In this document: positions 2,401 through 55,997 of the stretch, in pieces
Layout of the letters: each line of letters opens with the position of its first letter
Numbering within the stretch: position 1 is the first letter of the stretch
Sequence record: OR544956
Strand: one strand, 5' to 3'
Source of the DNA: Escherichia phage vB_EcoM_EP57
DNA length: 64,000 nucleotides
Position numbers and translations under genes: made by a program
Notes under the pieces: generated by a model
The model's database searches: none
Seen by the model: the letters and a program-made list of their open reading frames with translations, nothing else
What the model was told of the DNA's origin: nothing

Positions 2401-2578
2401 GGCTGGTTACTGTTCCCCGTGCATTCAGACGGTTTCTAGTTACCCCTGCACCACTCAACAACACTTTCAAAGAAGTTTTCTTTGTTATTCCAGCCTGATC
2501 TGTTACAAAGAAATCTGTATCAGACACAGAGGTTGTTTGTGTAAGATCAGAAATTTTGATCGTAGTTAAATCTGCCAT
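2384..2578 (-). CDS. hypothetical tail/baseplate protein
   Basis: 64-aa ORF; ATG overlaps stop of upstream gene (TAATG). Confidence 0.3.
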   Translation of the reverse strand: MADLTTIKISDLTQTTSVSDTDFFVTDQAGITKKTSLKVLLSGAGVTRNRLNARGTVTSLGIRY

Positions 2579-3204
2579 TACTCTTCTACTCCTGTCATAG
2601 CTGTTATACCGAAATTATTGTTTGTAGTTAATGCATCACCTTTTTCGTTAACCATGATTCTTTCCACTGCTGACTCTGTAGACCATTCATTCCACCAAGT
2701 AGAGTAGGTATCACGTGGCAAACCAACAAAGTTGATAAAGCGATAAAGTCTATTCGAATTCTCAACAATACTGTAAGCTTCACAAATGATCGCTGCATTG
2801 TCTTCACCAGCTTCAGGGTAAATAAACTCTTCAGAAGGTTGAGTATTGAATATAGATGTTACTGTATCTGCTCCTACTGTGACCATAACTGTCATTGAGT
2901 AATAACGTTGATCCATGTCATAAGCAGATTTATAACTGTTTATTGTATCTATGTAAACGTTTTTGGCAATCTCTGCTAAAAATATTCTGTCTACAATATC
3001 TTTCTTTCTAGCAACACCAATAATCTCTTGTAAGTAAGGAACACCGAAGTTAGTATTTAAAAACCACTCCCCACGATACGTGTTCAGAGTTATCCCAAGA
3101 GTTTGTGCTGCAATTTCTGTTCTGGTTGTAGTGAGGACCAAATCCCCATCATCCATGATGAGGTCGTTGTTTGGTCCAAGTTTTAAGTCAAAAGGGATTC
3201 CCAT
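2578..3204 (-). CDS. baseplate protein
   Basis: 208-aa ORF in collinear tail module. Confidence 0.35.
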   Translation of the reverse strand: MGIPFDLKLGPNNDLIMDDGDLVLTTTRTEIAAQTLGITLNTYRGEWFLNTNFGVPYLQEIIGVARKKDIVDRIFLAEIAKNVYIDTINSYKSAYDMDQRYYSMTVMVTVGADTVTSIFNTQPSEEFIYPEAGEDNAAIICEAYSIVENSNRLYRFINFVGLPRDTYSTWWNEWSTESAVERIMVNEKGDALTTNNNFGITAMTGVEE

Positions 3205-3205
3205 G

Positions 3206-3940
3206 TTAGGCTCCTGTTGGTTTTAAGGACTCGGCACTTGAGTTACCGCTCTGAATGTTACGAACCGTGTGCGTGTGAGTATGGAATCCGATGCCATTAC
3301 CATCTGTCATCAAACCGTTCTGGTCTATTTTAAGACCATTGATATCTGCCACGCCGCCTTTGAAAGTTAAATTACCACCTTTTAGATCCAAAGTCCCTGT
3401 GCCATCTGTAATAGTAATACCAGAGGTGGTAATATCTATTTTCATCCCTTGACTATTCCATATTGAAATATTACCTGTAGGGTCGAAAGAAGCGTACGTG
3501 TTTTTGTTATTAGAAATAACTACCTTTTCAGAATCTACAGCTTCTGTTGAATCTGTTCCTGTAGCTATTTTGGGAATAAAACAAATAGGGTATAATCCAC
3601 AAGGCTGCATAAAAGTGGATGATGAAGAGGTTTCTCCACTAGTTTGCAGTGCATTAGAAGGATCTCTTTCAGAAAATATAACAGTTCCTAAATCGCCAGC
3701 TTTAATAGGGAATGAGATTCTTCCTGTCCCACCACCATTAACCATAAAAGGAACATCTTCAAAAGTAGGGTAATCTATTTCATCTTCGCTAGATCGTGTG
3801 TTTTTAACAATAGATTCTAAGGTGACAGTCTTAGCACCATAATTAACGCCAGTCACACGGACTGGCAGGGCTGTATGGACTTCTGCTAATTGTTCTGTCA
3901 TTAAGCCACGCATTGCTGTGACAAAATTTAATGCATCCAT
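3206..3940 (-). CDS. baseplate spike-like protein with C-terminal Gly-rich repeats and HTHTHT motif
   Basis: 244 aa; C-terminus GGNLTFKGG...NGIGFHTHTHTV resembles beta-helical spike tips carrying HxH metal-binding motifs. Confidence 0.4.
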   Translation of the reverse strand: MDALNFVTAMRGLMTEQLAEVHTALPVRVTGVNYGAKTVTLESIVKNTRSSEDEIDYPTFEDVPFMVNGGGTGRISFPIKAGDLGTVIFSERDPSNALQTSGETSSSSTFMQPCGLYPICFIPKIATGTDSTEAVDSEKVVISNNKNTYASFDPTGNISIWNSQGMKIDITTSGITITDGTGTLDLKGGNLTFKGGVADINGLKIDQNGLMTDGNGIGFHTHTHTVRNIQSGNSSAESLKPTGA

Positions 3941-4950
3941 TATTTCTCCTTAGTCATTATTTCAGACACAGATACACACTCCACTTCAGTAACCCACTCT
4001 TTACCCTCTTTATCACCATTGTGAGAAACAGAAACAACTTTAAACGGACCATCATAATCTCGGCTTTTTAACCAGATTGTTTTTTCTGGTAATATTGCAC
4101 CATTCATTTGGCATTTGAATTTAACACCATCTGTAGGTTTCTTTGCCTTCTTAGAGGACTTGGTAACTTTTTTAGTAGGTTTTATATCGTTGTGGAATGG
4201 TTCTGGACTTCCTATCAGACCAGTTTCAGGGCTAATGTAGGCGCTACGTGCACTAGACATTTGTGAACGAGGAGTGACATAAACAGATCCATCTTGTATT
4301 GACACATTGTGATCAATACTTTTACAAATATGTTCTAGGTAATGTGAAGTGTTTCCACACATAGCTGTTGCTGAAGATAAGGTTTGATCATTATCTACGT
4401 GTATATTACCTTCTGTAGTTCCTAAATCCTTTACCAAATCTGTCACAACACGTTTGATTTTAGTTCCTTTTGGATAACTGCGGCTTGTTCTTGCTTCTGC
4501 AATGTTAATACCGCCATCCAAACAGTGTAAAGTGGTTTTCCTGTCTACCGAGTCAAAAGTATCACTAACCCACTGGATAGTTCCTTTGAAAATCATAACC
4601 AACTCTTCACCTTCGTATCCTACCGCTAAAGCAACAGCCAAGTTATTTCGGATACCACGGTTTATATAGTTAACAGTATCATCCGAAAGGTTATAAACTA
4701 CAATCTCTGCTTGGTTAGGATCTTTGTTATTATCTTTCTTAATACTGAAGGTTATTTGATGGTCTTGCAACAAATACAAATTAGAAGAGGATTTTTCTGT
4801 TGTTCCTAACTTGGTATCCAAATCTACTGTAGATTTAAATGCCGAGTTCTTAGTTCTCTTCTGTATTGTGTTTGTGGCAGAACCAATTAATAGTTTGTAT
4901 GCCCTGTTTAAATTAGGGGCAGGAGCTTTTGTATACTCTCTTTCTGCCAT
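3940..4950 (-). CDS. baseplate protein
   Basis: 336-aa ORF; start overlaps stop of upstream gene. Confidence 0.35.
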   Translation of the reverse strand: MAEREYTKAPAPNLNRAYKLLIGSATNTIQKRTKNSAFKSTVDLDTKLGTTEKSSSNLYLLQDHQITFSIKKDNNKDPNQAEIVVYNLSDDTVNYINRGIRNNLAVALAVGYEGEELVMIFKGTIQWVSDTFDSVDRKTTLHCLDGGINIAEARTSRSYPKGTKIKRVVTDLVKDLGTTEGNIHVDNDQTLSSATAMCGNTSHYLEHICKSIDHNVSIQDGSVYVTPRSQMSSARSAYISPETGLIGSPEPFHNDIKPTKKVTKSSKKAKKPTDGVKFKCQMNGAILPEKTIWLKSRDYDGPFKVVSVSHNGDKEGKEWVTEVECVSVSEIMTKEK

Positions 4951-15741: not shown

Positions 15742-16221
15742 TTAGTCCTTCTTGACTTTAACGCCCATTGCGCCTATACTCAAACCTTTAAGAACGCCGT
15801 CTTTACGAGCTTGATATAATTCAGGGTCGTTGAATTGGATTTTAACGAGGGGAGTTCCTTCCACAACGAGTTCGTCACCAATGTAACAATCGACTTCATT
15901 TACCCAAGCTTTAATTGGAGAAAACTTATCGGTGTTCTTCATGTGACCAAGATTACCACTAATGTTGGTAATATTCTCATTGAAGTTGTCAACCATCTTC
16001 CTGATTTCCAAATCAGACATGCGCTCTCCGTGGAGATCGTCTTCTTCAGGTGGACAATACAAGACCTCAATAACCTGCATCTTTTCTTCATCAAATTTAT
16101 TTTGTTTGACTAGAGTTTCAGGTTTTTGAGATGGTATAGAATCTTGTTGGGATTCAGAATTCTCTTTAAAACCAGCGAAGGTTTTGAAGAGTTCCCACAG
16201 TGTATCTTTATTGAGTTCCAT
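15742..16221 (-). CDS. hypothetical head morphogenesis protein
   Basis: 159-aa ORF between portal and scaffold-like genes. Confidence 0.3.
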   Translation of the reverse strand: MELNKDTLWELFKTFAGFKENSESQQDSIPSQKPETLVKQNKFDEEKMQVIEVLYCPPEEDDLHGERMSDLEIRKMVDNFNENITNISGNLGHMKNTDKFSPIKAWVNEVDCYIGDELVVEGTPLVKIQFNDPELYQARKDGVLKGLSIGAMGVKVKKD

Positions 16222-16314
16222 TTGAAACCTCTTAAAAACAGATATCCCATAAATCTTAGTCTACAGGATATTTGTTGTTTTGTCAATAGAAAAATTAAAA
16301 AATATTAAATATTT

Positions 16315-17880
16315 TTAATTCGACAGGTTTTGTGCTGAAGGATCTAAAGCAGAAACAGTATCAGACGTTCCAGTTCCCGCTGTAGCTAAACCGTCTCCTG
16401 ATCGTGAAGTTTTGTCAGGCATATAGTTATCCATGAATTCAAAGAATTTCTCTTTATTGGCAACAATATCGTCAGGGATACGATATTCAAAACCAATTTT
16501 TTCAAGGAACTCGTTAATAACTTCTGGGGTTAAAGGTATTGCACCAGAGGCTACCAACTGCTGAATAGCTTTAGCATTTACTTCAATATCAGGATCACCC
16601 ATTTCACCACTGACAAACTTAGGCATATCTTCATCAGAAAGGAAGATATTGTTTAGTCGTAGTGTTTGAGGGATCAGTTGAGAGTTTATAGCTTCTACAA
16701 CAATATCTACATCTCGCTCAATAAAATGAGACAATAGTGTTTGTTTGTTGTCAGAAAGCGCAAAACTTCCTGCATCACCATCACCCATAATCAACACACC
16801 CGCACCAAAACGGTTATAAATATCTAGCTTGCGTTGTTTGATTAGTGCTTGAGTGTCAAACTGTTTACCCGTGCCATCAACACCTTGGAATACAAGATCG
16901 TATTGACGCATCACTGTGCCTTCATAAACGTCTGAAGGCAATACCATGTAGGCTTGCTCCCCAGAGTGCAGGTTAGCGATGTTGGCTTGAAGAACTCGAA
17001 GAGATTGTGCTTCATCCCCAGCAGGATCTAAAGATGCCCTGTTTAGAATGTCACTTGGAACCTTAAGAACTGGCATACCACCTAAATCTTTAGATACCCC
17101 AATAACCTCAAATTCCTGAATAAGAGATTTTTCACGCCAGCTACGATATACAGCTAAAAGCGGACTAACTCCTAGTGGGTTATTCTCTGTAATGTTGCTA
17201 CCAACAAATAAAACTTTACTGAAAGGAATTTCTTTAATACCAGTTTCTAAAGTTGTATTACCTGGAGCTAACATCGTATTGGTGATATTCTGGTTAACAG
17301 ATAGAATAGAACGTCCGTCTGCCGAATATGTAAAAGGTTGAGCCATGTGAAGAGTGTCTTGTGGTCTAAAAGCCAGTTTGGTTAATCGCCAATACCCAAA
17401 GTAAGGACTTTTAGGATCTTCATCCAACTCATAAACTTTCTCTGCGAATGCAAAACCATATTGCTTATATGTCAAAAGTGATCTAACATATTGACGTAGA
17501 GGGGCTTGCATATTGCGTAACATGTAATCAATAAACTTAGCAGCTTTTCTTGACTTTGCCGAGTTTACATTGTATTTTATCTTGAAATCAAAGAATGCTC
17601 TATCTACAAAGATATATGTAGCGTCAAGAGCAGTAGCTACATCAGGGTCTTCACCCATCTCTTTAAAAGTGCGAATACATTCTGGGAAACGAGTCTCATA
17701 AGGTTGCATGAAATTCGTAAATGCTTTGATTGAGTTTAATCCGATCGTTCCTATTTCAGGTGACAGGAGTAACGTTTTCTCTTTCTCTGCCTCTTTTGTT
17801 GGAGAGAGAGCAGCTTTATTTGCAGCACCTTTGTCCCAGTATTCTGACTTTTTAGTGTACGTTCTTTTTCCTGTTGACAC
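16315..17880 (-). CDS. portal protein
   Basis: 521-aa ORF immediately downstream of terminase large subunit; promoter-like element upstream. Confidence 0.5.
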   Translation of the reverse strand: MSTGKRTYTKKSEYWDKGAANKAALSPTKEAEKEKTLLLSPEIGTIGLNSIKAFTNFMQPYETRFPECIRTFKEMGEDPDVATALDATYIFVDRAFFDFKIKYNVNSAKSRKAAKFIDYMLRNMQAPLRQYVRSLLTYKQYGFAFAEKVYELDEDPKSPYFGYWRLTKLAFRPQDTLHMAQPFTYSADGRSILSVNQNITNTMLAPGNTTLETGIKEIPFSKVLFVGSNITENNPLGVSPLLAVYRSWREKSLIQEFEVIGVSKDLGGMPVLKVPSDILNRASLDPAGDEAQSLRVLQANIANLHSGEQAYMVLPSDVYEGTVMRQYDLVFQGVDGTGKQFDTQALIKQRKLDIYNRFGAGVLIMGDGDAGSFALSDNKQTLLSHFIERDVDIVVEAINSQLIPQTLRLNNIFLSDEDMPKFVSGEMGDPDIEVNAKAIQQLVASGAIPLTPEVINEFLEKIGFEYRIPDDIVANKEKFFEFMDNYMPDKTSRSGDGLATAGTGTSDTVSALDPSAQNLSN

Positions 17881-17949
17881 TTGTTCCTCCAGTCAGGTAT
17901 AAAATCGTTAAGGCAAGGCTGTATTATATACAACCTCACCTATCTAGTT

Positions 17950-17978
17950 ATAATACACTTTAAAGTGACTTTTGTCAA
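17950..17978 (-). promoter_or_regulatory. sigma70-like promoter upstream of portal gene
   Basis: minus strand TTGACA - 17 nt - TATTAT. Confidence 0.4.
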
Positions 17979-17981
17979 CAA

Positions 17982-20057
17982 TTATCTTTTACGGACACTA
18001 TACGGTTGGTGAAATCCGCTGTTCATTCTACTGTATCCTGTAGGAGCATTTGTTGTTGTAGGGATAGCTACTGCTTTGAAAGTATTCTCTTTTGACAGAG
18101 TATTAAAACAAGAGGCAGCAGCATCGGGAATGTCATCTTTAATAGTGGCTGTAGATCTTTCACCATTGAAAGATTCCAATTCTTTATAAAAGTGGGTTAA
18201 AGTCTCCACATTAGGGAAAGAATCTTCAACAATATAAACAAAACCGTTTTGACACGCACTACTAAAAGGCATGAAACGCTGAAGCTTTTTCTTGTTACCT
18301 GGCATAGCATCTGGTTTAACAACAAAACCCTCTAGAATAAGTTTCTTTGCAGACTCTGTGTATTCTATTGTCCCAGCACCAGATGGGTCTTTAGGAAGCA
18401 CTACTGTAACTTCTGGTCCATCAATCTTACATTGATTTAGAATCAGGTTATCCCTTTCCCCAGGTAGTCTTCGAAACCTTCCGAAAATTTTACTTTTCTC
18501 ATCCACAGCATCATAATCATAGTCGCCAAAGATGTAGATATTACCATCTTGGTCTTTACCCATTTTGACAGATGTTGTATAGTCTGGATAACGGTAAGTT
18601 TCTGTAGGAACTGAAACAGCTTTATCCCATGCTCGCATTAGTTTAAGATTGTTAGGAACATCTTTATAAGATATTTTATGTAACCATTCACGTTGAAAGA
18701 AAGATTCTTTCTGGATACGTGCAAACCAACAACCGTCCAGAAGCTGTGCTCTTTTGATCGCTGTTTGTGATTTAAGCTGTGCTAAGTAATTAGGGTTAAG
18801 CCTAATGAGTTCTGGGTTATCAAATATTGTCCCACCAATAAATACGAAAGTTTGTGGTTCAATAACAACTGTCTCCCCTGTATTAGGGTTTTCCATGAAA
18901 CAGTTTTCTGGATATTTTTCTTTCAGTTCTTCAGGTGTGTCAGCAAAAACAGGTTCATCGTTAACAATGATGAAATATTTTTGTTTACCACACATATCTT
19001 CTCTAGGATAACCACCCTCATCAAGATAAGGTAACACCCAATTCAAAACCCAACTATCTGCGTCAGGGTTACATGTGCACAACATGAAACTTGTTTCTGA
19101 CTCTGAACGCATACGTCCCAGAAGATAGAGCATTTCATATTGTGTGAAGTGGGTTAACTCGTCAAAACCTACCATTGAATACTGTGTACCCTGATGGTTT
19201 GTTTCTGCTGTTACGTTATCATTTTCCAAATGGTCAAATTTGAGGGTTCCGCCACCAGTGGCTTCAAAAATGATATCCATTGTACTTTCTTTTACGTGTG
19301 GTTGTAAAGGAAGATACAAACGTTTTGCTTCTGTAAACAGACCACCTGGTTTACGGTGAGCAGTGGTGTTCTTACGGAAAAGTATTCCACCAAACAAAGG
19401 GTCTTTGTAGGCGTATTTTAAAGCTTTCAGCAATAGCAGACGAGACTTGCCGCTATTCCCAGTAACGAAGCAGTGATCGCCACGTCTAAAGACAATATAG
19501 CTGCTTGGAGTCTCAAAACAATATTTCTTATCATCTGTTGAAATAACCTCGTGTATTTTTAAGTAAGTGCTCTTTTTACCAGGTATGTTAAAAGGAACAC
19601 GTTTACCGAATGGATTTTCTACATAACCTTGCAGGGGTTTTCCTATTTGCTGTAATGCAATAAGATCTCCTACAAGAATCTCGAAATGTTTCTTTGATTT
19701 CTTTTTCTTATAGAATACAAAACGGTGTTCCATACTAAGTTCTTGGAATAATCCTACACCATTTGTTATTCTGTATAGGTTATCTCCATTTAAATCGTAT
19801 TCTACAAAATAAGGTGTTACCAATTCTAAACGCTTATTCTTAGGATTGTATTGGTAAATATCCTCTCCCGAATATTCACTAATCTGCCTCCAACCATCTT
19901 TTGTAAGATATTCCGTTTCAGCAGAAACACATCCAGCGGCACCACCATAAATCATAACCTCTGGCATTAAATCCATTGCAAGAGTCTGTTTACCTGGTTG
20001 AGCCTTTACTTCAATATCTACTCCAGCTAAACTACCTGCTGCCTTTTTCTTTGCCAC
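17982..20057 (-). CDS. terL: terminase large subunit (intein-containing precursor)
   Basis: Walker A split as GGAAG / SGKS around insert; Walker B MVGFDE; CTCNPDAD motif; 691 aa = ~532-aa terminase + 159-aa insert. Confidence 0.85.
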   Translation of the reverse strand: MAKKKAAGSLAGVDIEVKAQPGKQTLAMDLMPEVMIYGGAAGCVSAETEYLTKDGWRQISEYSGEDIYQYNPKNKRLELVTPYFVEYDLNGDNLYRITNGVGLFQELSMEHRFVFYKKKKSKKHFEILVGDLIALQQIGKPLQGYVENPFGKRVPFNIPGKKSTYLKIHEVISTDDKKYCFETPSSYIVFRRGDHCFVTGNSGKSRLLLLKALKYAYKDPLFGGILFRKNTTAHRKPGGLFTEAKRLYLPLQPHVKESTMDIIFEATGGGTLKFDHLENDNVTAETNHQGTQYSMVGFDELTHFTQYEMLYLLGRMRSESETSFMLCTCNPDADSWVLNWVLPYLDEGGYPREDMCGKQKYFIIVNDEPVFADTPEELKEKYPENCFMENPNTGETVVIEPQTFVFIGGTIFDNPELIRLNPNYLAQLKSQTAIKRAQLLDGCWFARIQKESFFQREWLHKISYKDVPNNLKLMRAWDKAVSVPTETYRYPDYTTSVKMGKDQDGNIYIFGDYDYDAVDEKSKIFGRFRRLPGERDNLILNQCKIDGPEVTVVLPKDPSGAGTIEYTESAKKLILEGFVVKPDAMPGNKKKLQRFMPFSSACQNGFVYIVEDSFPNVETLTHFYKELESFNGERSTATIKDDIPDAAASCFNTLSKENTFKAVAIPTTTNAPTGYSRMNSGFHQPYSVRKR
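19455..19931 (-). mobile_element. mini-intein (159 aa) inserted in the terminase P-loop
   Basis: starts CVSAETEYLT, internal SMEHRF (TxxH-like block), ends FVTGN followed by Ser; excision restores GGAAGSGKS. Confidence 0.7.
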
Positions 20058-21413: not shown

Positions 21414-21437
21414 GCAAAAAGCCTCCAATAAGGAGGC
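21414..21437 (-). terminator. rho-independent terminator closing the tRNA operon
   Basis: minus strand GCCTCC-TTATT-GGAGGC followed by TTTTT. Confidence 0.6.
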
Positions 21438-21553
21438 TAATAAATACTGTTAAGTTGAAATGCTTTATTATAATTGTGCGTTAAGGAGTCGCACCCCTCC
21501 ATCTTAGAAGGAACCAGGCAAGGTCTTCAAAGATACCGCTGGCAAGCGATATT

Positions 21554-21638: not shown

Positions 21639-21710
21639 TATCCCGTGCTGGATTCGAACCAGCATCACAATAAGCTGTGGAACTCTTATCCTGTAAGTCT
21701 AACGGGAAAC
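21639..21710 (-). tRNA. tRNA-like element, anticodon not resolved (possible pseudo-tRNA)
   Basis: T arm GCTGG-TTCGAAT-CCAGC and acceptor-like ends, but no canonical anticodon arm found by eye. Confidence 0.25.
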
Positions 21711-22134: not shown

Positions 22135-22208
22135 TGGAGCGTTCTACGAGGATCGAACTCGTGCCGCCGACTTGGAAGGACGGAATGCTACCGCTACACC
22201 AAGAACGC
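22135..22208 (-). tRNA. tRNA-Gly (anticodon TCC), CCA encoded
   Basis: acceptor GCGTTCT/AGAACGC; anticodon loop CTTCCAA; T arm ACGAG-TTCGATC-CTCGT. Confidence 0.5.
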
Positions 22209-22219
22209 CCTACATCTTT

Positions 22220-22249
22220 ACTATACTACATTTTACTATTGGTTGTCAA
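22220..22249 (-). promoter_or_regulatory. promoter with AACTATTGACAA element, start site just upstream of the tRNA at 22208
   Basis: minus strand TTGACA - 18 nt - TATAGT. Confidence 0.45.
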
Positions 22250-22438
22250 TAGTTTTATTGAGTGGGACAGTGACGAGTATCCCGTTGGGTGACTAGCCCT
22301 ACGTTCGGTAAGCTAACTTAAAATAATACAAAACCAAAGTCAAATATTATTCTTCGTTGCTGTCGATGGGAGAGCCGCTTCTCATTTTGCCCCATCCAAC
22401 CCTACTCCGGTCAAGTTTCGGGTAACTCTTTTTGTGTG

Positions 22439-22527
22439 ATCAACACAATACTAAGAACACTGTCTTTCGAACAGACCTTGTGCACAGGATACGACGATCA
22501 ATCACAGTGCTCTTAATGTTGTGTTGG
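22439..22527 (-). ncRNA. tRNA-like degenerate element (GTTCGAA loop, 8-bp terminal pairing), not a canonical tRNA
   Basis: ends CAACACAA/TTGTGTTG pair; internal hairpin with TTCGAA loop; no cloverleaf could be completed. Confidence 0.2.
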
Positions 22528-22599
22528 TGCTCCCACACTGAATCGAACAGAGATCCACGGATTACAAAACCGTTGTAATAGCCATTATACTATAGGAGC
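22525..22599 (-). tRNA. tRNA-Thr (anticodon TGT), CCA encoded
   Basis: acceptor GCTCCTA/TGGGAGC (one G-U); anticodon loop TTTGTAA. Confidence 0.45.
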
Positions 22600-22605
22600 A
22601 AAGCT

Positions 22606-22682
22606 GGGACTCGGCAGGATTCGATACCTGCAATTCCAGAAGCCTCTTGGCGACTGGGGGTTTACCTTAACTCTACAAGTCC
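22606..22682 (-). tRNA. tRNA, anticodon not resolved by eye
   Basis: acceptor GGACTTG/CGAGTCC pairs; T-arm-like GCAGG-TATCGAAT-CCTGC with 8-nt loop. Confidence 0.3.
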
Positions 22683-22689
22683 ATAATTC

Positions 22690-22775
22690 TGGCGATGAGT
22701 ATAGGATTTGAACCTATATCGTTCTTTCGAACACGGATTAACAGTCCGCCGCTTAAACCATTCAGCCAACTCATC
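22690..22775 (-). tRNA. class II (long variable arm) tRNA with apparent anticodon GTT
   Basis: acceptor GATGAGT/ACTCATC; anticodon arm GCGGA-CTGTTAA-TCCGT; variable arm GTTC-GAAA-GAAC; T arm ATAGG-TTCAAAT-CCTAT. Confidence 0.45.
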
Positions 22776-22781
22776 TTAATT

Positions 22782-22869
22782 TGGTGGTGAGTGATGGAGT
22801 TGAACCACCCGAATCGCAATGATAACAGATTTACAGTCTGCCCCGCTACCCCTACGGAATTAACTCACC
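22782..22869 (-). tRNA. tRNA-Tyr (anticodon GTA), class II, CCA encoded
   Basis: acceptor GGTGAGT/ACTCACC; anticodon arm GCAGA-CTGTAAA-TCTGT; T arm GGTGG-TTCAACT-CCATC. Confidence 0.6.
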
Positions 22870-22947
22870 TAAATACTAATATTTAAATTCTTTTTAAAAT
22901 AGCCAGTGTTCACACCACTAACTATGTAAGCCATATTAAAAAGAACT

Positions 22948-23033
22948 TGGCGGTAGATGTAGGACTCGAACCTACACGCCGTTTCCGACTACAGTTTAGC
23001 AAACTGTCGTGGCTACCATTTCACCAATCTACC
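22948..23033 (-). tRNA. tRNA-Ser (anticodon GCT), class II, CCA encoded
   Basis: acceptor GGTAGAT/ATCTACC; anticodon arm ACAGT-TTGCTAA-ACTGT; long variable arm. Confidence 0.6.
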
Positions 23034-23038
23034 TAATC

Positions 23039-23129
23039 TGGCGGAAGGAGGGAGAGTCGAACTCCCAAGGCTCTTTCAAGCTCGGCGGTTTTCAAGACCG
23101 TTTTCGTCGCCACGTCGATTTGCCCTTCC
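23039..23129 (-). tRNA. tRNA-Ser (anticodon TGA), class II, CCA encoded
   Basis: acceptor GGAAGGG/TCCTTCC; anticodon loop CTTGAAA; long variable arm; T arm GGGAG-TTCGACT-CTCCC. Confidence 0.5.
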
Positions 23130-23138
23130 ATACTTATA

Positions 23139-23167
23139 ATCTAACATAAAATAATGTTTGTTGTCAA
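23139..23167 (-). promoter_or_regulatory. promoter with AACTATTGACAA element, start site at the tRNA-Ser 5' end
   Basis: minus strand TTGACA - 17 nt - TTAGAT. Confidence 0.4.
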
Positions 23168-23363
23168 TAGTTTTTTAAAACATTTTACCATGAATGGTGA
23201 CTCCACCAACCCCCGTTCTCCACGAACGGTGCTCTTCGAGCATTTATGTCTTCTAATATAACCGTGGCCTTTGTTTATAATGTCTGACATACTTGCCTCA
23301 TTCTCTGCCACCATGATCAGTAGTGGGTTCAAATTACTTGAGCTAATTCATGTTAAAATGTTC

Positions 23364-23438
23364 TGGTGTCTTTACAAGGAATCGAACCTTGACTAAGAGT
23401 TTAGAAGACTCCTGTGCTATCCATTACACCATAAAGAC
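23364..23438 (-). tRNA. tRNA-Arg (anticodon TCT), CCA encoded
   Basis: acceptor GTCTTTA/TAAAGAC; anticodon arm GGAGT-CTTCTAA-ACTCT; T arm CAAGG-TTCGATT-CCTTG. Confidence 0.6.
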
Positions 23439-23440
23439 GT

Positions 23441-23515
23441 TGGTGGCCCTGGCTGGTTTCGATCCAGCTACCTATCGGTTATGAGCCGACAGCTCTCCCA
23501 TTGAGCTACAGGGCC
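23441..23515 (-). tRNA. tRNA-Met (anticodon CAT; could be fMet or Ile2), CCA encoded
   Basis: acceptor GGCCCTG/CAGGGCC; D arm GCTC-AATGGGA-GAGC; anticodon arm GTCGG-CTCATAA-CCGAT. Confidence 0.6.
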
Positions 23516-23520
23516 ATAAA

Positions 23521-23712
23521 TGTGGTAACAGAGACGCTGACGATTGTAGAGAACCGCTACATTCTCTAAGACCAAGCCCAACTTTCAGCGTAAAAGTTCT
23601 TGAGCCGAGACTGTTCCTTTTCCTCTTTGGTAGCTAACCTCTGAAGAAGTAGTCTCTAACACTACCGCAGTGCAAGCCCCTCTTAACAAAAGTCAACGAC
23701 ACTGTTACCACA
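23521..23712 (-). ncRNA. candidate structured stable RNA (~190 nt) at the 5' end of the tRNA transcript
   Basis: perfect 11-bp terminal helix (5' UGUGGUAACAG / 3' CUGUUACCACA), internal hairpins, no long ORF, begins at the predicted start site of the 23725..23754 promoter. Confidence 0.4.
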
Positions 23713-23724
23713 CTTGATGAACGT

Positions 23725-23754
23725 ATCCTAACATATGAAGGATACGTTTGTCAA
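23725..23754 (-). promoter_or_regulatory. promoter with AACTATTGACAA element heading the tRNA operon
   Basis: minus strand TTGACA - 18 nt - TAGGAT; 6-bp inverted repeat GTATCC/GGATAC overlaps the spacer. Confidence 0.4.
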
Positions 23755-23761
23755 TAGTTAT

Positions 23762-24010
23762 TTAAGCATATTCTGCTACTTCTTCACTATCTTTCTTTTC
23801 CAGAAGAGCAACAACCAAAGCTTCTGCGTTAAAAGTATTAATTTCAAGATCCATCTCTCGCATCAGAGCCAAGAAATCAATAACTTTAACATCTTTAGTG
23901 ATTACAATAGAAGTTGTACCATTGTTTTCAGATGTGTATTTTTCTGGATGGAAAAGAAAAACTGCATTGCCGTTACCATCTTCAAACACGTGTTTTTCTA
24001 ATAGAGACAT
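23762..24010 (-). CDS. hypothetical small protein
   Basis: 82-aa ORF, first minus-strand gene left of the divergent region. Confidence 0.35.
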   Translation of the reverse strand: MSLLEKHVFEDGNGNAVFLFHPEKYTSENNGTTSIVITKDVKVIDFLALMREMDLEINTFNAEALVVALLEKKDSEEVAEYA

Positions 24011-36905: not shown

Positions 36906-36913
36906 TGAAACTA

Positions 36914-36935
36914 GGGGCTTCGGCCCCTTTTTATT
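36914..36935 (+). terminator. stem-loop GGGGCTTCGGCCCC plus T-run
   Basis: GGGGC-TTCG-GCCCC then TTTTTATT. Confidence 0.5.
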
Positions 36936-43064: not shown

Positions 43065-43860
43065 TAAAGGGGCTTCGGCCCCTTCTAAAAGGAGTGCTAC
43101 TATGGGAAATAAAACCGCAGCTAAAACACAACGGCAGAAACTGGCTAATTCAGCAAAGATTGAAAGCCGTTATGCAGCAAAAGCGGTAGGTAATGACGAT
43201 TACCGTTTAGATGAATTTATGCCTGAAGGGGACCAAAATAAGATTGTTCAAAGCATGATTTGGAATGATCTGACTGTTGTAAATGCTCCGGCAGGGACTG
43301 GTAAAACCTCTGTTGCTTTATGGAAAGCTTTGCAGATGCTTCGTTCAGGAGACTTCCGTAAACTACTTTTTATCAAGAACCCTACTGAAGTCGGAGATGA
43401 CCAGATTGGTTTCTTGTCTGGAGATAAAACAGATAAACTAGCAGCACACTATGAATCTACAAAACGTATTTTCCAGCAATTCATGACAGCCAACAAATTG
43501 GAAAACGACATTGGATCAGGTAAGATCGAATTGAATATTCCTAACTATTTGTTGGGGGCCACCCTGGATAATACAATCGTCATTATTGACGAAGCACAAC
43601 TTATGTCAACAGAAACACTTAAACTTCTTATTGAACGTGCAGGTATTAATACGCATGTTATTGTATTAGGCGATGTTCGCCAGACATATGCAATTAAAAA
43701 ACGTAGCAATGGTCTGCATCAAATTTTGGAACTTTTATATCCAGAAAATGAAGAAGGTGTTCGTGAGCCAATTGTAGATTTTATTGGATACGTTGAACTG
43801 ACAACGGACGATAATAAACGTGGACGTTTGTCTAAACTGATTACTGAAGTGTTTATTTAA
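43051..43860 (+). CDS. phoH: PhoH-like ATPase
   Basis: Walker A NAPAGTGKTS; IIDEAQ Walker B; 269 aa. Confidence 0.75.
   Translation: MLTTNKGASAPSKRSATMGNKTAAKTQRQKLANSAKIESRYAAKAVGNDDYRLDEFMPEGDQNKIVQSMIWNDLTVVNAPAGTGKTSVALWKALQMLRSGDFRKLLFIKNPTEVGDDQIGFLSGDKTDKLAAHYESTKRIFQQFMTANKLENDIGSGKIELNIPNYLLGATLDNTIVIIDEAQLMSTETLKLLIERAGINTHVIVLGDVRQTYAIKKRSNGLHQILELLYPENEEGVREPIVDFIGYVELTTDDNKRGRLSKLITEVFI
43068..43082 (+). terminator. GGGGCTTCGGCCCC stem-loop without a clear T-run
   Basis: same hairpin as at 36914 and 54099, followed only by TT. Confidence 0.25.
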
Positions 43861-52441: not shown

Positions 52442-53117
52442 AACAGTTTTGTCTATGTTTGACGGATCTGGGATCATGGTGTTACGTTATGCCGAAGCAG
52501 GTCACAAGTGTTTTTGTGTAAACGCTGATGAAGGGGATCACGGTAAATACGAGGTTAGGATGGAGCACCCAAACATAACCTATGTGAATGCTTGGATAGA
52601 TTCTACATTCAACCCTGAAGATCATGGGATACCTAAACCCGATATTATTTTTGGATTTCCACCTTGCACTATGTTAGCAGGTAGTGGTAGCAAACATGAA
52701 CGTAGCACAGAGGAATTAGATGAAGCTTTAGCTAATATTCGTGTAGTGGAAGCTTTGGGTAACAAATATAATGTTCCTTGGATGATTGAGAACCCAGTAG
52801 GTAAACTTTCAACCTTATGGCGTAAACCCGATTTTTACTTTGATCCTTATGAGTATGGTGGGTATTTGTTTGAAGAGGAAGGAAGCTTTCATCCTAAAAT
52901 GCCTACCCGTGATGGGTATACAAAGAAAACTTGTATTTGGCACGGCAATGGTTTTGTTCAACCAGTGAAGAAACCAGTAGATCATATAGGCTGCTTTTGG
53001 GGTTGGAAAAGCTTAGGTGGAGCTAGTGCAAAAACAAAACAACTTAGATCCCTAACCGCACGTGGTTTTGCTCGTGCCGTGTTTTTGTCTAACAATCTTC
53101 TAGATAAGGAGAAATAA
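52434..53117 (+). CDS. C5-cytosine methyltransferase-like protein (short, no obvious target-recognition domain)
   Basis: motif I FDGSG, motif IV GFPPCT (PCQ-like catalytic Cys), motif VI ENP; 227 aa from ATG 52434. Confidence 0.5.
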   Translation: MSKTVLSMFDGSGIMVLRYAEAGHKCFCVNADEGDHGKYEVRMEHPNITYVNAWIDSTFNPEDHGIPKPDIIFGFPPCTMLAGSGSKHERSTEELDEALANIRVVEALGNKYNVPWMIENPVGKLSTLWRKPDFYFDPYEYGGYLFEEEGSFHPKMPTRDGYTKKTCIWHGNGFVQPVKKPVDHIGCFWGWKSLGGASAKTKQLRSLTARGFARAVFLSNNLLDKEK

Positions 53118-53770
53118 TGTCAAATTCAAAACCAGTAGTTGCTTATCAAGTAGATCGTAATGATGGTGAAGGAAGTGTTGTTATTTTCAGTACACACGGT
53201 CTTGAGGCTCGTCGAAAAGGTGCATATCGTTTAGAATGTGAGTTTGAAGACTGCACAAGCCACCGTGTCAAACAATTCGATCAATATGCTGATAAAGGCT
53301 TCGTCCCTGTCAAAGCCTTACTGGAAGATGGTTGGTGGGTATATTCTGCTTTTGATTACTCAAGACTGGAGGAGTCAGCTTCGTGCGCCTCCGAGATCGA
53401 ATATGATGATTACTATGACACTCTGTACCTTCCAGAATGGCTTGTCTTTTCTCCTGATGAAAAAAGTGTCTGGAAAACGTGGGAAGAAATGGAGAGACAT
53501 GCGTATAGCATCAATGAAGCTTTAGATCGTAAAGCTTGGTTTATTGAGGCAGTAAAGGCGGCATACCCCCAATTCTCATTCTGTGATTTCACTGGTGGCC
53601 CAGGATACATTACACATACAGCCTCTTTTGAGTTTCCTGGTTCACGTTATAAGGGTAATGTTTATTGGGACTGGGATGAAAATAAACAACCTTCGGCTCA
53701 AGACTTCCGTTGCTATGTTTGTCAAGGTGATCAAGAAGCCCTTGACAAATACCTTGAAAGTCTGGTATAG
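53117..53770 (+). CDS. hypothetical protein
   Basis: 217-aa ORF, start overlaps upstream stop. Confidence 0.35.
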   Translation: MSNSKPVVAYQVDRNDGEGSVVIFSTHGLEARRKGAYRLECEFEDCTSHRVKQFDQYADKGFVPVKALLEDGWWVYSAFDYSRLEESASCASEIEYDDYYDTLYLPEWLVFSPDEKSVWKTWEEMERHAYSINEALDRKAWFIEAVKAAYPQFSFCDFTGGPGYITHTASFEFPGSRYKGNVYWDWDENKQPSAQDFRCYVCQGDQEALDKYLESLV

Positions 53771-54081: not shown

Positions 54082-54098
54082 ACAAATAAACCACTCAA

Positions 54099-54118
54099 GG
54101 GGCTTCGGCCCCTTTCTT
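54099..54118 (+). terminator. GGGGCTTCGGCCCC hairpin plus T-tract
   Basis: GGGGC-TTCG-GCCCC then TTTCTTATT. Confidence 0.45.
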
Positions 54119-55226: not shown

Positions 55227-55388
55227 CCATATCTCCTTTTAAAAGGCTGCACCTATTGAAGATGCAGCTTTGATAGATTATTTAGATGAGTCTAAAATGT
55301 CTTTTACTTTTGCCGTGATAACGTCTTGATATTTGTTAATAAGATAGCCTACAACTACACCTACGATAAATGAAACCATTATTTCTCC

Positions 55389-55997
55389 TTATTTAAGTGG
55401 TGAGAGAACAATCTCTCGGTTTTTTAAGAACCAAAGCATGTCATCTTGATCATAGTCTGATCCCTCTGTAGTAGAATTTTTGATAGAATCAAAAAACCAA
55501 CGAGGTATACCAAAACAACTTCCAGATGACTGCATGTCTTTCTGCGACATTTTAAATGTGATTGGAAAATCACAATTATCAATCTCTCGGATATCTGCTG
55601 AAGATAAGATTGTAACTTCAACCAGTTCGTCGTTAGATGTAGTATCGTTGTCTTCCTGAATAATGTCAAATGCTTTTTGCACATCTTTTGCATCTAATGT
55701 TAAACCTGTGGCTTTCTGAAAAGCCGAAACAAAAATTAGAGCTTCTTCAGAGCAAGGGGCTTCCAGCAAATGAGCCATAATAGGTGACAAGCAAATGTTA
55801 AGATCTTTGTCATACCAACGAACAATCCACACAGGCGTTGCTCCGTTTTGTTTGTCACGAGCCAAAATTGTAACGTGCTGACCTTCTTCTGGTATATGAT
55901 ACAAACCAGAAAAACCAGGACCTGTAGTAGATTTTTTGACACGCGCTACGTGTCCAACTTCTAAAGGATCTTTACCATCCCAAATCTTCTCTTCCAT
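55389..55997 (-). CDS. hypothetical protein
   Basis: 202-aa ORF. Confidence 0.4.
   Translation of the reverse strand: MEEKIWDGKDPLEVGHVARVKKSTTGPGFSGLYHIPEEGQHVTILARDKQNGATPVWIVRWYDKDLNICLSPIMAHLLEAPCSEEALIFVSAFQKATGLTLDAKDVQKAFDIIQEDNDTTSNDELVEVTILSSADIREIDNCDFPITFKMSQKDMQSSGSCFGIPRWFFDSIKNSTTEGSDYDQDDMLWFLKNREIVLSPLK

Follow-up and report, generated by a model that had tools for sequence, protein, structure and literature searches.

Sigma-70-type promoters predicted inside the tRNA cluster of a phAPEC8-like coliphage share a lineage-specific flank

The tRNA cluster of phage T4 also contains the stable RNAs species 1 and 2, is transcribed by the host RNA polymerase and has been described as fed from upstream promoters. 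A distinct class of phage promoter has either an extended motif that recurs genome-wide, such as the T4 MotA box or the late TATAAATA, or the sequence read by a phage RNA polymerase. Host rRNA and tRNA promoters carry a G+C-rich discriminator, and the consensus of the proximal UP subsite is AAAAAARNR. T4-type phages reportedly also have PeSL cassettes, modules of an early promoter and a stem-loop that Arbiol and co-workers are said to have described in 2010. For the related myovirus rV5, 33 sigma-70-like promoters were predicted genome-wide, 11 of them with an extended -10, plus a promoter named 'PtRNA' (Kropinski et al. 2013, PMC3606486, Table S4). The literature that we found on transcription in Phapecoctavirus, phi92 and rV5-like phages holds in-silico promoter predictions alone, with no start-site or expression data.

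We analyzed a stretch of 64,000 nucleotides (the window) from Escherichia phage vB_EcoM_EP57 (record OR544956), a phAPEC8-like coliphage (Phapecoctavirus). An earlier note had reported a 12-mer, AACTATTGACAA, at three places in the tRNA cluster. The window contains three exact copies, all on the minus strand: 23748-23759 (site A), 23161-23172 (site B), and 22243-22254 (site C). Two of the three positions had been given correctly, and the third, reported at 23746, was 2 nt off. A repeat search (family D5) showed that the similarity is longer than the 12-mer and covers 18 nt, TTAAAWAACTATTGACAA; compared with site B, site A agrees at 17/18 positions and site C at 15/18. Beyond these 12–18 nt the spacers of the three sites are unrelated, which rules out longer duplicated modules.

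How unusual is this repeat? The chance expectation of 0 returned by the search tool applies to the single 12-mer AACTATTGACAA alone. When all 12-mers of the window were counted, 29 occurred at least three times, versus ∼4.7 in Markov-1 simulations. The triple 12-mer by itself is thus unremarkable, and its raw count cannot be taken as significant. The non-random part is the arrangement: three copies within 1.5 kb, on the same strand, intergenic, and with identical promoter geometry. A motif search over a full genome, as proposed in the earlier note, was run on the near-identical phage tuntematon (150 kb) and bore this out: AACTATTGACAA occurs only three times, always between genes and always in the tRNA cluster. 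Given the flank frequencies of 40 other TTGACA promoters, three given promoters would share the six flanking positions by chance with a probability of ∼6e-6. Such agreement is improbable and has to reflect either a constraint of some kind or recent homogenisation. AACTATTGACAA is also unchanged in six phAPEC8-group sequences whose spacers do differ.

All three sites look like sigma-70-type promoters. Each has a perfect TTGACA followed, after a spacer of 18 nt (1 nt above the 17-nt optimum and within the allowed 16–19 nt), by a TAnnnT hexamer, giving 10–11/12 matches to the consensus. Each lies on the minus strand, like all the tRNAs, and upstream of tRNAs or of a structured RNA, S1. The 18-nt element of site A (23748..23765, minus strand; TTAAATAACTATTGACAA) consists of an A-rich flank, AACTA, TTGACA (23749-23754), and a final A, and includes the TAA stop codon (23762-23764) of an upstream 82-aa ORF. 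Its extended -10 (23725..23733) reads TG (23733-23732), T, and TAGGAT (23730-23725); the usual 7-nt distance would put the start near A23718. The 18-nt element of site B (23161..23178, minus strand; TTAAAAAACTATTGACAA) has its -35 hexamer at 23162-23167 and is followed by an extended -10 (23138..23146) made of TG (23146-23145), T, and TAGATT (23143-23138); ATGTTAGATT, in this -10 region, is identical in the Justusliebigvirus orthologue. The predicted start, A23131, lies 2 nt upstream of G23129, the 5' end of the tRNA. At site C (22243..22260, minus strand; CAATAAAACTATTGACAA; -35 hexamer at 22244-22249), the -10 is TATAGT (22220..22225), preceded by TAG rather than TGn, and the predicted start near G22213 falls 5 nt before tRNA-Gly (22135-22208). 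This -10 lies within a 15/16-nt tandem duplication that is a repeat_region in the nieznany and tuntematon records.

A close variant had also been noted upstream of the ORF at 15742..16221. We found it between the portal gene and this ORF (16258..16291, minus strand): TTCTATTGACAA at 16280-16291, with a perfect TTGACA (the 16286 variant), a 17-nt spacer, and TAGACT. Every related lineage that we examined conserves this promoter, with AGGTA as its flank.

The earlier proposal that these -35 and -10 boxes place the starts at the 5' ends of a tRNA or of the structured RNA agrees with the predicted starts: those of promoters B and C precede tRNA-Ser(UGA) and tRNA-Gly by 2–5 nt, and that of promoter A precedes the closing helix of S1 by 3 nt. 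S1 is a structured non-coding RNA of ∼200 nt (23516..23718, minus strand) that runs from the predicted start of promoter A to just before a CAU-anticodon tRNA (23441-23515, minus strand). It folds with a minimum free energy of -72.3 kcal/mol (z = -4.5), and 12/72 of its pairs are compensatory relative to the sister lineage L007. At E ≤ 1, Rfam gave no match for the structured RNAs S1-S3. Downstream of promoter B lies a tRNA with a long variable arm, of the Ser(UGA) type (23043..23129, minus strand). It was missed by ARAGORN and stays under the Rfam gathering score (tRNA-Sec model, 37.4 bits, E = 3e-5), and its equivalent is labeled tRNA-Ser-TGA in the ASO2A record. The tRNA/small-RNA transcription unit(s) end at an intrinsic terminator (21420..21438, minus strand; AGCCTCC..GGAGGCT, then TTTTT) that is also annotated in ASO2A. 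That careful annotation calls nine promoters, none of them in the tRNA cluster.

The most probable explanation, one that we hold with good confidence, is that each of the three 12-mers is the -35 region of an internal sigma-70-type promoter that the host RNA polymerase reads, and that AACTA is not a separate recognition element. From the anatomy of the sites, their genome-wide distribution, and their conservation across lineages, we infer promoter activity and start sites. The promoters would divide the cluster into sub-operons: P_A would drive S1, then the CAU-anticodon tRNA and tRNA-Arg; P_B would drive tRNA-Ser(UGA), tRNA-Ser(GCU), and the Tyr, Asn, and Thr tRNAs; and P_C would drive the Gly, Gln, Pro, Ile, and Met tRNAs as far as the terminator. 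An A-tract precedes all three sites and may act like the proximal UP subsite, which it resembles in part (∼5–6 of 8 positions in our own alignment). The stretch between -10 and start is A/T-rich, unlike the discriminator of host rRNA and tRNA promoters. TTGACA with an A-tract, an 18-nt spacer, TAnnnT, and this A/T-rich stretch would together give strong transcription that probably escapes stringent control and starts a few bases from the mature RNA 5' ends. Against this explanation stand the long spacer, the ASO2A annotation with its tRNA cluster free of promoter calls, the partial UP match, the improbable identity of the flank at the three sites, and the overlap with hairpins described below.

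We then asked what the AACTA flank might be, since it had been read as the mark of a phage promoter class or of a shared regulator site. The phiWec179 group and Justusliebigvirus both keep the promoters before tRNA-Ser and tRNA-Gly, and Klebsiella-phage lineages (represented by L012 and L020) keep the one before tRNA-Gly. TTGACAA and (TGT)TAnnnT are retained across lineages while the spacers diverge. The flank does not follow the promoters. In the sister lineage (phiWec179, L007), where the -35 and -10 are retained, it reads AAGTA at site A, AGGTG at site B, and AACTA at site C. In the neighboring genus Justusliebigvirus it reads AACTAG and AACTAC, with AACTA shifted by 1 nt in both, and GCCTC, and AACTA is absent from the more distant lineages L012, L020, and L021. 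Comparison with the promoters of relatives, another check that had been suggested, thus supported the promoters but not the flank. Pattern scans of IMG/VR that used S1 and tRNA-Gly as anchors returned one relevant contig, L007, and two chance matches in coding DNA. The ∼40 other TTGACA promoters have just the A-tract in common, at ∼-10 to -5 relative to the hexamer (position -5 is A in 77%), and their last 4 nt vary. CTA directly precedes TTGACA at 7 intergenic promoters of this lineage, and the orthologues in relatives often have GTA.

A genome-wide promoter class is ruled out by these data: three copies of the 12-mer in a 150-kb genome with dozens of otherwise-flanked TTGACA promoters, a flank replaced in the sister lineage, and none in distant relatives. 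The regulator site did not hold up either, because the motif lacks dyad symmetry, two of the three sister-lineage sites carry AAGTA or AGGTG, and the more distant relatives do not have it. Direct repeats are also missing from the asymmetric 12-mer, and each site has its own sequence in the inverted repeats overlapping its promoter. As far as sequence comparison tells, AACTA is a lineage-specific flank, neither promoter class nor operator. It would correspond to the variable 3–5 nt between A-tract and -35, and its sameness at the three sites most likely reflects common descent or homogenisation together with weak selection.

Unexpectedly, promoters of the tRNA cluster overlap hairpins, and the lineages differ in these by compensatory changes. 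A palindrome spans all of promoter A (23714..23754, minus strand; TTGAcAAACGTATCCT, a 9-nt loop, AGGATACGTTcaTCAA) and folds as RNA with -14.5 kcal/mol (z = -5.0); the L007/phiWec179 orthologue retains it with two compensatory changes and one G.U. A second hairpin surrounds the -35 of promoter C (22235..22253, minus strand; ACTATTG, loop ACAAC, CAATAGT; -6.0 kcal/mol, z = -2.35). The ACTA of the motif forms its 5' arm, and AACTA at site C would be constrained through this pairing. The stem at the tRNA-Gly promoter differs in each lineage (ACTATTG, AGCCTCTT, TACTTG, TGCTTG) but stays in the same place with its pairing kept. In Justusliebigvirus, AACTAG pairs with CTAGTT and AAAACTA with TAGTTTT. 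Perfect inverted repeats of at least 6 bp bracket the -35 at 8/18 tRNA-cluster promoters versus 1.8 expected (reached in 0/2000 shuffles), and repeats of at least 7 bp do so at 4 versus 0.57 expected; the early-region promoters (n = 18) showed no such excess (2 versus 0.97, P = 0.26). In 54-nt segments, 20 promoters folded more stably than shuffled sequence (mean z = -2.0, P = 3e-4), with the sense strand more stable than the antisense strand (-9.3 versus -6.5 kcal/mol, Wilcoxon P = 0.003). The same folding test gave a mean z of -0.07 for early promoters.

The hairpins do not resemble intrinsic terminators: site A is followed by TTCATCAAG and site C by AAAATG, and neither our terminator scan nor ASO2A calls one. 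The site A hairpin has no U-tract, which rules out a terminator there. Opposite-strand terminators would suit some relatives, in which the hairpin bracketing the -35 has a G+C-rich stem and, on that strand, a T-tract behind it. They do not suit sites A and B here, and the plus strand has no genes that would need a terminator. As the conserved hairpins overlap the promoters, part of the sequence conservation could serve a role at the RNA level, not a promoter role.

Could selection mainly keep these hairpins? The promoters would then be dual-coded, the hairpins forming in sense-strand read-through RNA from upstream promoters and serving as processing sites, as 3'-end protection of S1-S3 or upstream mRNAs, or as folding insulators, and AACTA would persist for its place in a hairpin arm and not for recognition by RNA polymerase. 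The excess of bracketing repeats in the tRNA cluster and its absence at early promoters, the folding above shuffles with a more stable sense strand, the compensatory changes that preserve the site A pairing in L007, the replaced stems at tRNA-Gly, and the Justusliebigvirus pairings all argue for this. We nevertheless consider it unlikely. AACTA lies in no stem at sites A and B of the window, and the site B region folds no better than shuffles (z = +0.92); hairpin registers move by 1–3 nt among lineages without strict column-by-column covariation, and one pair of the site C stem is disrupted in phage EF1-1, a natural variant. The case is also weakened by stems that are short and A/U-rich and by a difference between sense and antisense that base composition could partly explain. 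It is doubtful that the internal tRNA-cluster promoters of Stephanstirmvirinae are built so that the same 40–50 nt are both a sigma-70 promoter in DNA and a conserved sense hairpin that buries UUGACAA in read-through RNA from the preceding promoter. Such a hairpin might set 3' ends or sites of processing, or insulate neighboring tRNAs and structured RNAs in their folding, and AACTA would then be in part a hairpin arm.

A purely historical identity, with a functionless flank in paralogues of duplicated promoter-tRNA modules or in short repeats spread by gene conversion, would account for a shared block of only 12–18 nt beside unrelated spacers. The occurrence of CTA at the 7 intergenic promoters of this lineage versus the frequent GTA of relatives also suggests lineage-specific drift or homogenisation. 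Yet a duplication old enough to randomise the spacers should also have let a neutral flank of 5–6 nt diverge, and gene conversion across just 12–18 nt is unusual. We find this origin, which in the available genomes looks the same as weak selection, quite unlikely. It is very improbable that AACTATTGACAA is an operator through which a phage or host DNA-binding regulator co-ordinates the three stable-RNA promoters. Twelve identical positions at three sites, together with the 17/18 match of A and B, exceed chance, and the motif is restricted to one functional gene cluster. However, the 12-mer has no symmetry except a trivial TTG-N-CAA, the promoters persist where the sister lineage has swapped the flank, the flank is offset by 1 nt in Justusliebigvirus and missing from the three distant lineages, and the universally conserved portion is simply the sigma-70 -35 consensus.

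Taken together, these results favor internal host-type promoters. If they are active, the tRNAs and three un-named structured RNAs are driven by several strong, nearly leaderless promoters, probably outside stringent control. This matters for annotation, as ASO2A, whose tRNA cluster has no promoter feature, is the sole curated record of the genus that we checked for such features, and for the engineering of therapeutic-candidate coliphages of the EP57 type. The finding is not conceptually new, since earlier predictions already place host-type consensus promoters all over rV5-like genomes. If functional, the hairpin overlap would add modestly to the constraints on promoters inside stable-RNA operons; dual coding, if true, would couple promoter architecture to the structure of RNA precursors in a way not reported before.

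Three promoters inside a tRNA cluster are an ordinary way of driving tRNA and small-RNA expression. The strong sigma-70 promoters of E. coli stable RNAs and early phage genes, with a proximal UP A-tract and TGn, are alike in TTGACA, TAnnnT, the A-tract at ∼-45 to -40, the purine start 7 nt past the -10, and, for two of the sites, TG at -15/-14. The phage sites, known here from sequence, differ in the 18-nt spacer at all three and in the partial UP match. The predicted promoters of rV5-like phages are likewise host-type TTGACA(A) sequences spread over the genome, many with an extended -10 and one before tRNA genes. None has the AACTA flank, many have GTG directly before TTGACA, and rV5 lists one tRNA promoter versus the three inside the EP57 cluster. 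Like T4-type PeSL cassettes, the sites are short repeated sigma-70 promoter modules with stem-loops, and the early region of tuntematon holds ∼18 promoter-plus-hairpin cassettes. In the tRNA cluster, however, the hairpin overlaps or brackets the -35 rather than adjoining the promoter, and the repeat is 12–18 nt only. In the T4 tRNA cluster, too, stable structured RNAs whose function is unknown lie among the tRNAs, and the host polymerase transcribes them. Here, in contrast, conserved promoters are predicted inside the cluster, and S1-S3 have no detectable Rfam relation.

The stretch derives from a phAPEC8-like coliphage of the genus Phapecoctavirus (subfamily Stephanstirmvirinae). Phages nieznany and tuntematon are 99.7% identical to it across the tRNA region, and window position 1 corresponds to ~77,498 in tuntematon. 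The tRNA cluster lies on the minus strand, with the terminase, portal and head genes downstream of it and an intrinsic terminator (21420-21438) at its end. It comprises 11 tRNAs with Rfam support, a sub-threshold tRNA with a long variable arm, and a number of structured spacers. ARAGORN does not detect this long-arm tRNA, tRNA-Ser(UGA) at 23043-23129 (minus), which also stays under the Rfam gathering scores; the tRNA-Sec model gives it 37.4 bits, and ASO2A, a curated record of the genus, names its equivalent tRNA-Ser-TGA. The same record lists the CAU-anticodon tRNA at 23441-23515 as tRNA-Ile-CAT (tRNAscan-SE detection) rather than Met. T-arm-like hairpins also occur outside any called tRNA in the minus-strand cluster (21646-21663 and 22614-22637); they include GCAGGATTCGA, an exact copy of the tRNA-Pro T-arm, and TGCTGGATTCGAACCAGC, and suggest additional degenerate tRNAs or tRNA-like RNAs.

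Three minus-strand spacers are structured and non-coding: S1 (23516-23718), S2 (23179-23362) and S3 (~22255-22524). S1 is a genuine structured RNA: it folds with a minimum free energy of -72.3 kcal/mol (z = -4.5), and compensatory changes relative to the sister lineage affect 12 of its 72 pairs. The closing stem of S2 spans 17 nt and is 94% complementary. An Rfam search at E <= 1 returned no family match for S1, S2 or S3, which look like un-named phage stable RNAs.

The earlier note had reported a 12-mer repeated three times within this cluster. AACTATTGACAA indeed occurs exactly three times in the window, always on the minus strand, at site C (22243-22254), site B (23161-23172) and site A, which starts at 23748 (to 23759) and not, as proposed, at 23746. 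The full shared block is 18 nt long (TTAAAWAACTATTGACAA); site B is matched at 17/18 positions by site A and at 15/18 by site C, and the spacers of the three sites are unrelated to one another. The bare count is weaker evidence than it appears, because 29 12-mers occur at least three times in the window, versus ~4.7 in Markov simulations. What is non-random is the arrangement of the copies rather than their number: they fall within 1.5 kb, in intergenic DNA and on a single strand, and a full-genome search found no others in tuntematon (150 kb). Two other short sequences, a terminator-like AAGGGGCCGAAGCCCC and an RBS-containing TAAGGAGAAATAATG block, each occur three times in the window (~36913-36930, 43068-43085 and 54098-54115; also 3938-3955, 53105-53120 and 55377-55392).

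Each site combines TTGACA, an 18-nt spacer and a TAnnnT hexamer (TATAGT at C, TAGATT at B, TAGGAT at A), with a TG one base ahead of the -10 at sites A and B. Counting 7 nt on from the -10, the predicted +1 of the site A promoter, P_A, is A23718, 3 nt ahead of the helix that closes S1; that of P_B is A23131, 2 nt before the 5' end of tRNA-Ser(UGA) at G23129; and that of P_C is ~G22213, 5 nt before tRNA-Gly. As S1 is a real structured RNA and the predicted starts lie 2-5 nt before the RNAs, the proposed geometry, with predicted start sites at RNA 5' ends, holds. Judged from sequence, all three most likely serve as internal promoters of host type within the stable-RNA cluster of the phage. A 15/16-nt tandem duplication at 22211-22239 (AATAGTAAAATGTAG then TATAGTAAAGATGTAG) encloses the -10 of P_C and is a repeat_region in the nieznany and tuntematon records.

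We wondered whether AACTA, the five bases preceding the -35, marks a promoter class or a regulator site, as had been suggested. With flank frequencies taken from 40 other TTGACA promoters, the probability that three given promoters share the same bases at the six flanking positions is ~6e-6, and the 12-mers do not vary among six phAPEC8-group sequences whose spacers do differ. A promoter class was not borne out: ~40 other promoters of this and related phages carry different flanks. The tuntematon early region alone holds 18 TTGACA-N16/17-TAnnnT promoters in repeated cassettes, and conserved promoters lie behind the late terminase and portal genes. The upstream feature common to the 40 is an A-tract ending ~4-5 nt ahead of the hexamer, with A at -5 in 77%; the last four positions vary (GTG, GTA, CTA, ATG, GGG and others). 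On this pattern AACTA is the tail of that A-tract plus a variable CTA. The A-tract may be an UP-element proximal subsite, which it fits only in part when aligned by hand to the consensus.

Four further lineages were recovered through the terminase gene: the phiWec179/L007 group (90% identity), Justusliebigvirus (ESCO9, L008-L010; 86%), L012 with Klebsiella phage phi1_175008 (85%) and Klebsiella phage KP13-16 (64%). The first two have promoters ahead of both tRNA-Ser and tRNA-Gly, and L012 and phi1_175008 also have the tRNA-Gly promoter. All these promoters retain TTGACAA and (TGT)TAnnnT, and ATGTTAGATT of site B is identical in Justusliebigvirus. The flanks are AAGTA at A, AGGTG at B and AACTA at C in the phiWec179 group; Justusliebigvirus has AACTAG and AACTAC, offset by one base, and GCCTC at the tRNA-Gly promoter; the Klebsiella-phage lineages examined lack AACTA. 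The close variant noted upstream of ORF 15742..16221 is real (TTCTATTGACAA, 16280-16291), and the flank of this 16286 variant is AGGTA in every relative examined. AACTA occurs in 0/33 predicted promoters of the more distant relative rV5 (PMC3606486). The flank is not kept across relatives; AACTA is a lineage-specific flank, neither a promoter class nor an operator.

Unexpectedly, inverted repeats overlap promoters in the tRNA clusters of these phages, the sole mildly novel aspect of the finding. Site A forms one long imperfect palindrome from the -35 through the start (TTGAcAAACGTATCCT, 9-nt loop, AGGATACGTTcaTCAA; -14.5 kcal/mol as RNA, z = -5.0), which persists in the L007 orthologue (-17.9 kcal/mol) by way of two compensatory changes plus a single G.U. 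At site C the -35 is bracketed by ACTATTG[ACAAC]CAATAGT, and in other lineages the tRNA-Gly promoters have a hairpin at this position whose stems differ (AGCCTCTT[GACA]AAGGGGCT, TACTTG[ACAA]TAAGTA and TGCTTG[ACAA]CAAGTA), every wobble pair being G.U on the sense strand. Perfect -35-bracketing repeats of at least 6 bp occur in 8/18 tRNA-cluster promoters versus 1.8 expected (reached in 0/2000 shuffles) and in 2/18 early-region promoters versus 0.97 expected (P = 0.26). Compared with shuffles, promoter windows fold with a mean z of -2.0 in the tRNA clusters (n = 20, P = 3e-4) and -0.07 in the early region (n = 18), and the tRNA-cluster sense strand is more stable than the antisense (-9.3 vs -6.5 kcal/mol; Wilcoxon P = 0.003). 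Taken together, these statistics suggest an RNA-level constraint on read-through transcripts, which takes in ACTA at site C. There are caveats: at sites A and B AACTA is unpaired, and site B folds no better than chance (z = +0.92). Hairpin registers differ by 1-3 nt between lineages, and in phage EF1-1 the site C stem has lost a base pair.

In the late structural module, the minus-strand sigma-70-type promoters at 16215-16330 and 17870-18000, located behind the terminase and portal genes, are conserved throughout the related lineages examined; the second has a conserved inverted repeat, ATATCC..GGATAT, across the -10 and start. At 2433-4400 of phi1_175008 (L020), a DUF2828/DUF7788 protein weakly similar to Ro60-vWA is encoded ahead of a hairpin-bracketed promoter and two sub-threshold matches to YrlA (Y RNA-like; 36 and 34 bits, E ~1e-5); the locus may be a Ro-like protein and Y-RNA module within a phage tRNA cluster. 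Outside the window, at 5.8-17.3 kb of tuntematon (L002), a repeated cassette stands ahead of each of ~18 small early genes; it consists of TTGACA, 16-17 nt, TAAGAT or TAAACT, GTATYACRTAGGGCGG and a G+C-rich 5'-UTR hairpin, and resembles the promoter-plus-stem-loop (PeSL) cassettes known from T4-type phages. In ASO2A, the only curated record of the genus checked for promoter features, none is called in the tRNA cluster. Predicted internal promoters such as P_A, P_B and P_C are a known kind of element, since predicted promoters of the same type have been published for rV5: 33 sigma-70-like promoters, of which 11 have an extended -10, together with a 'PtRNA' promoter (PMC3606486).
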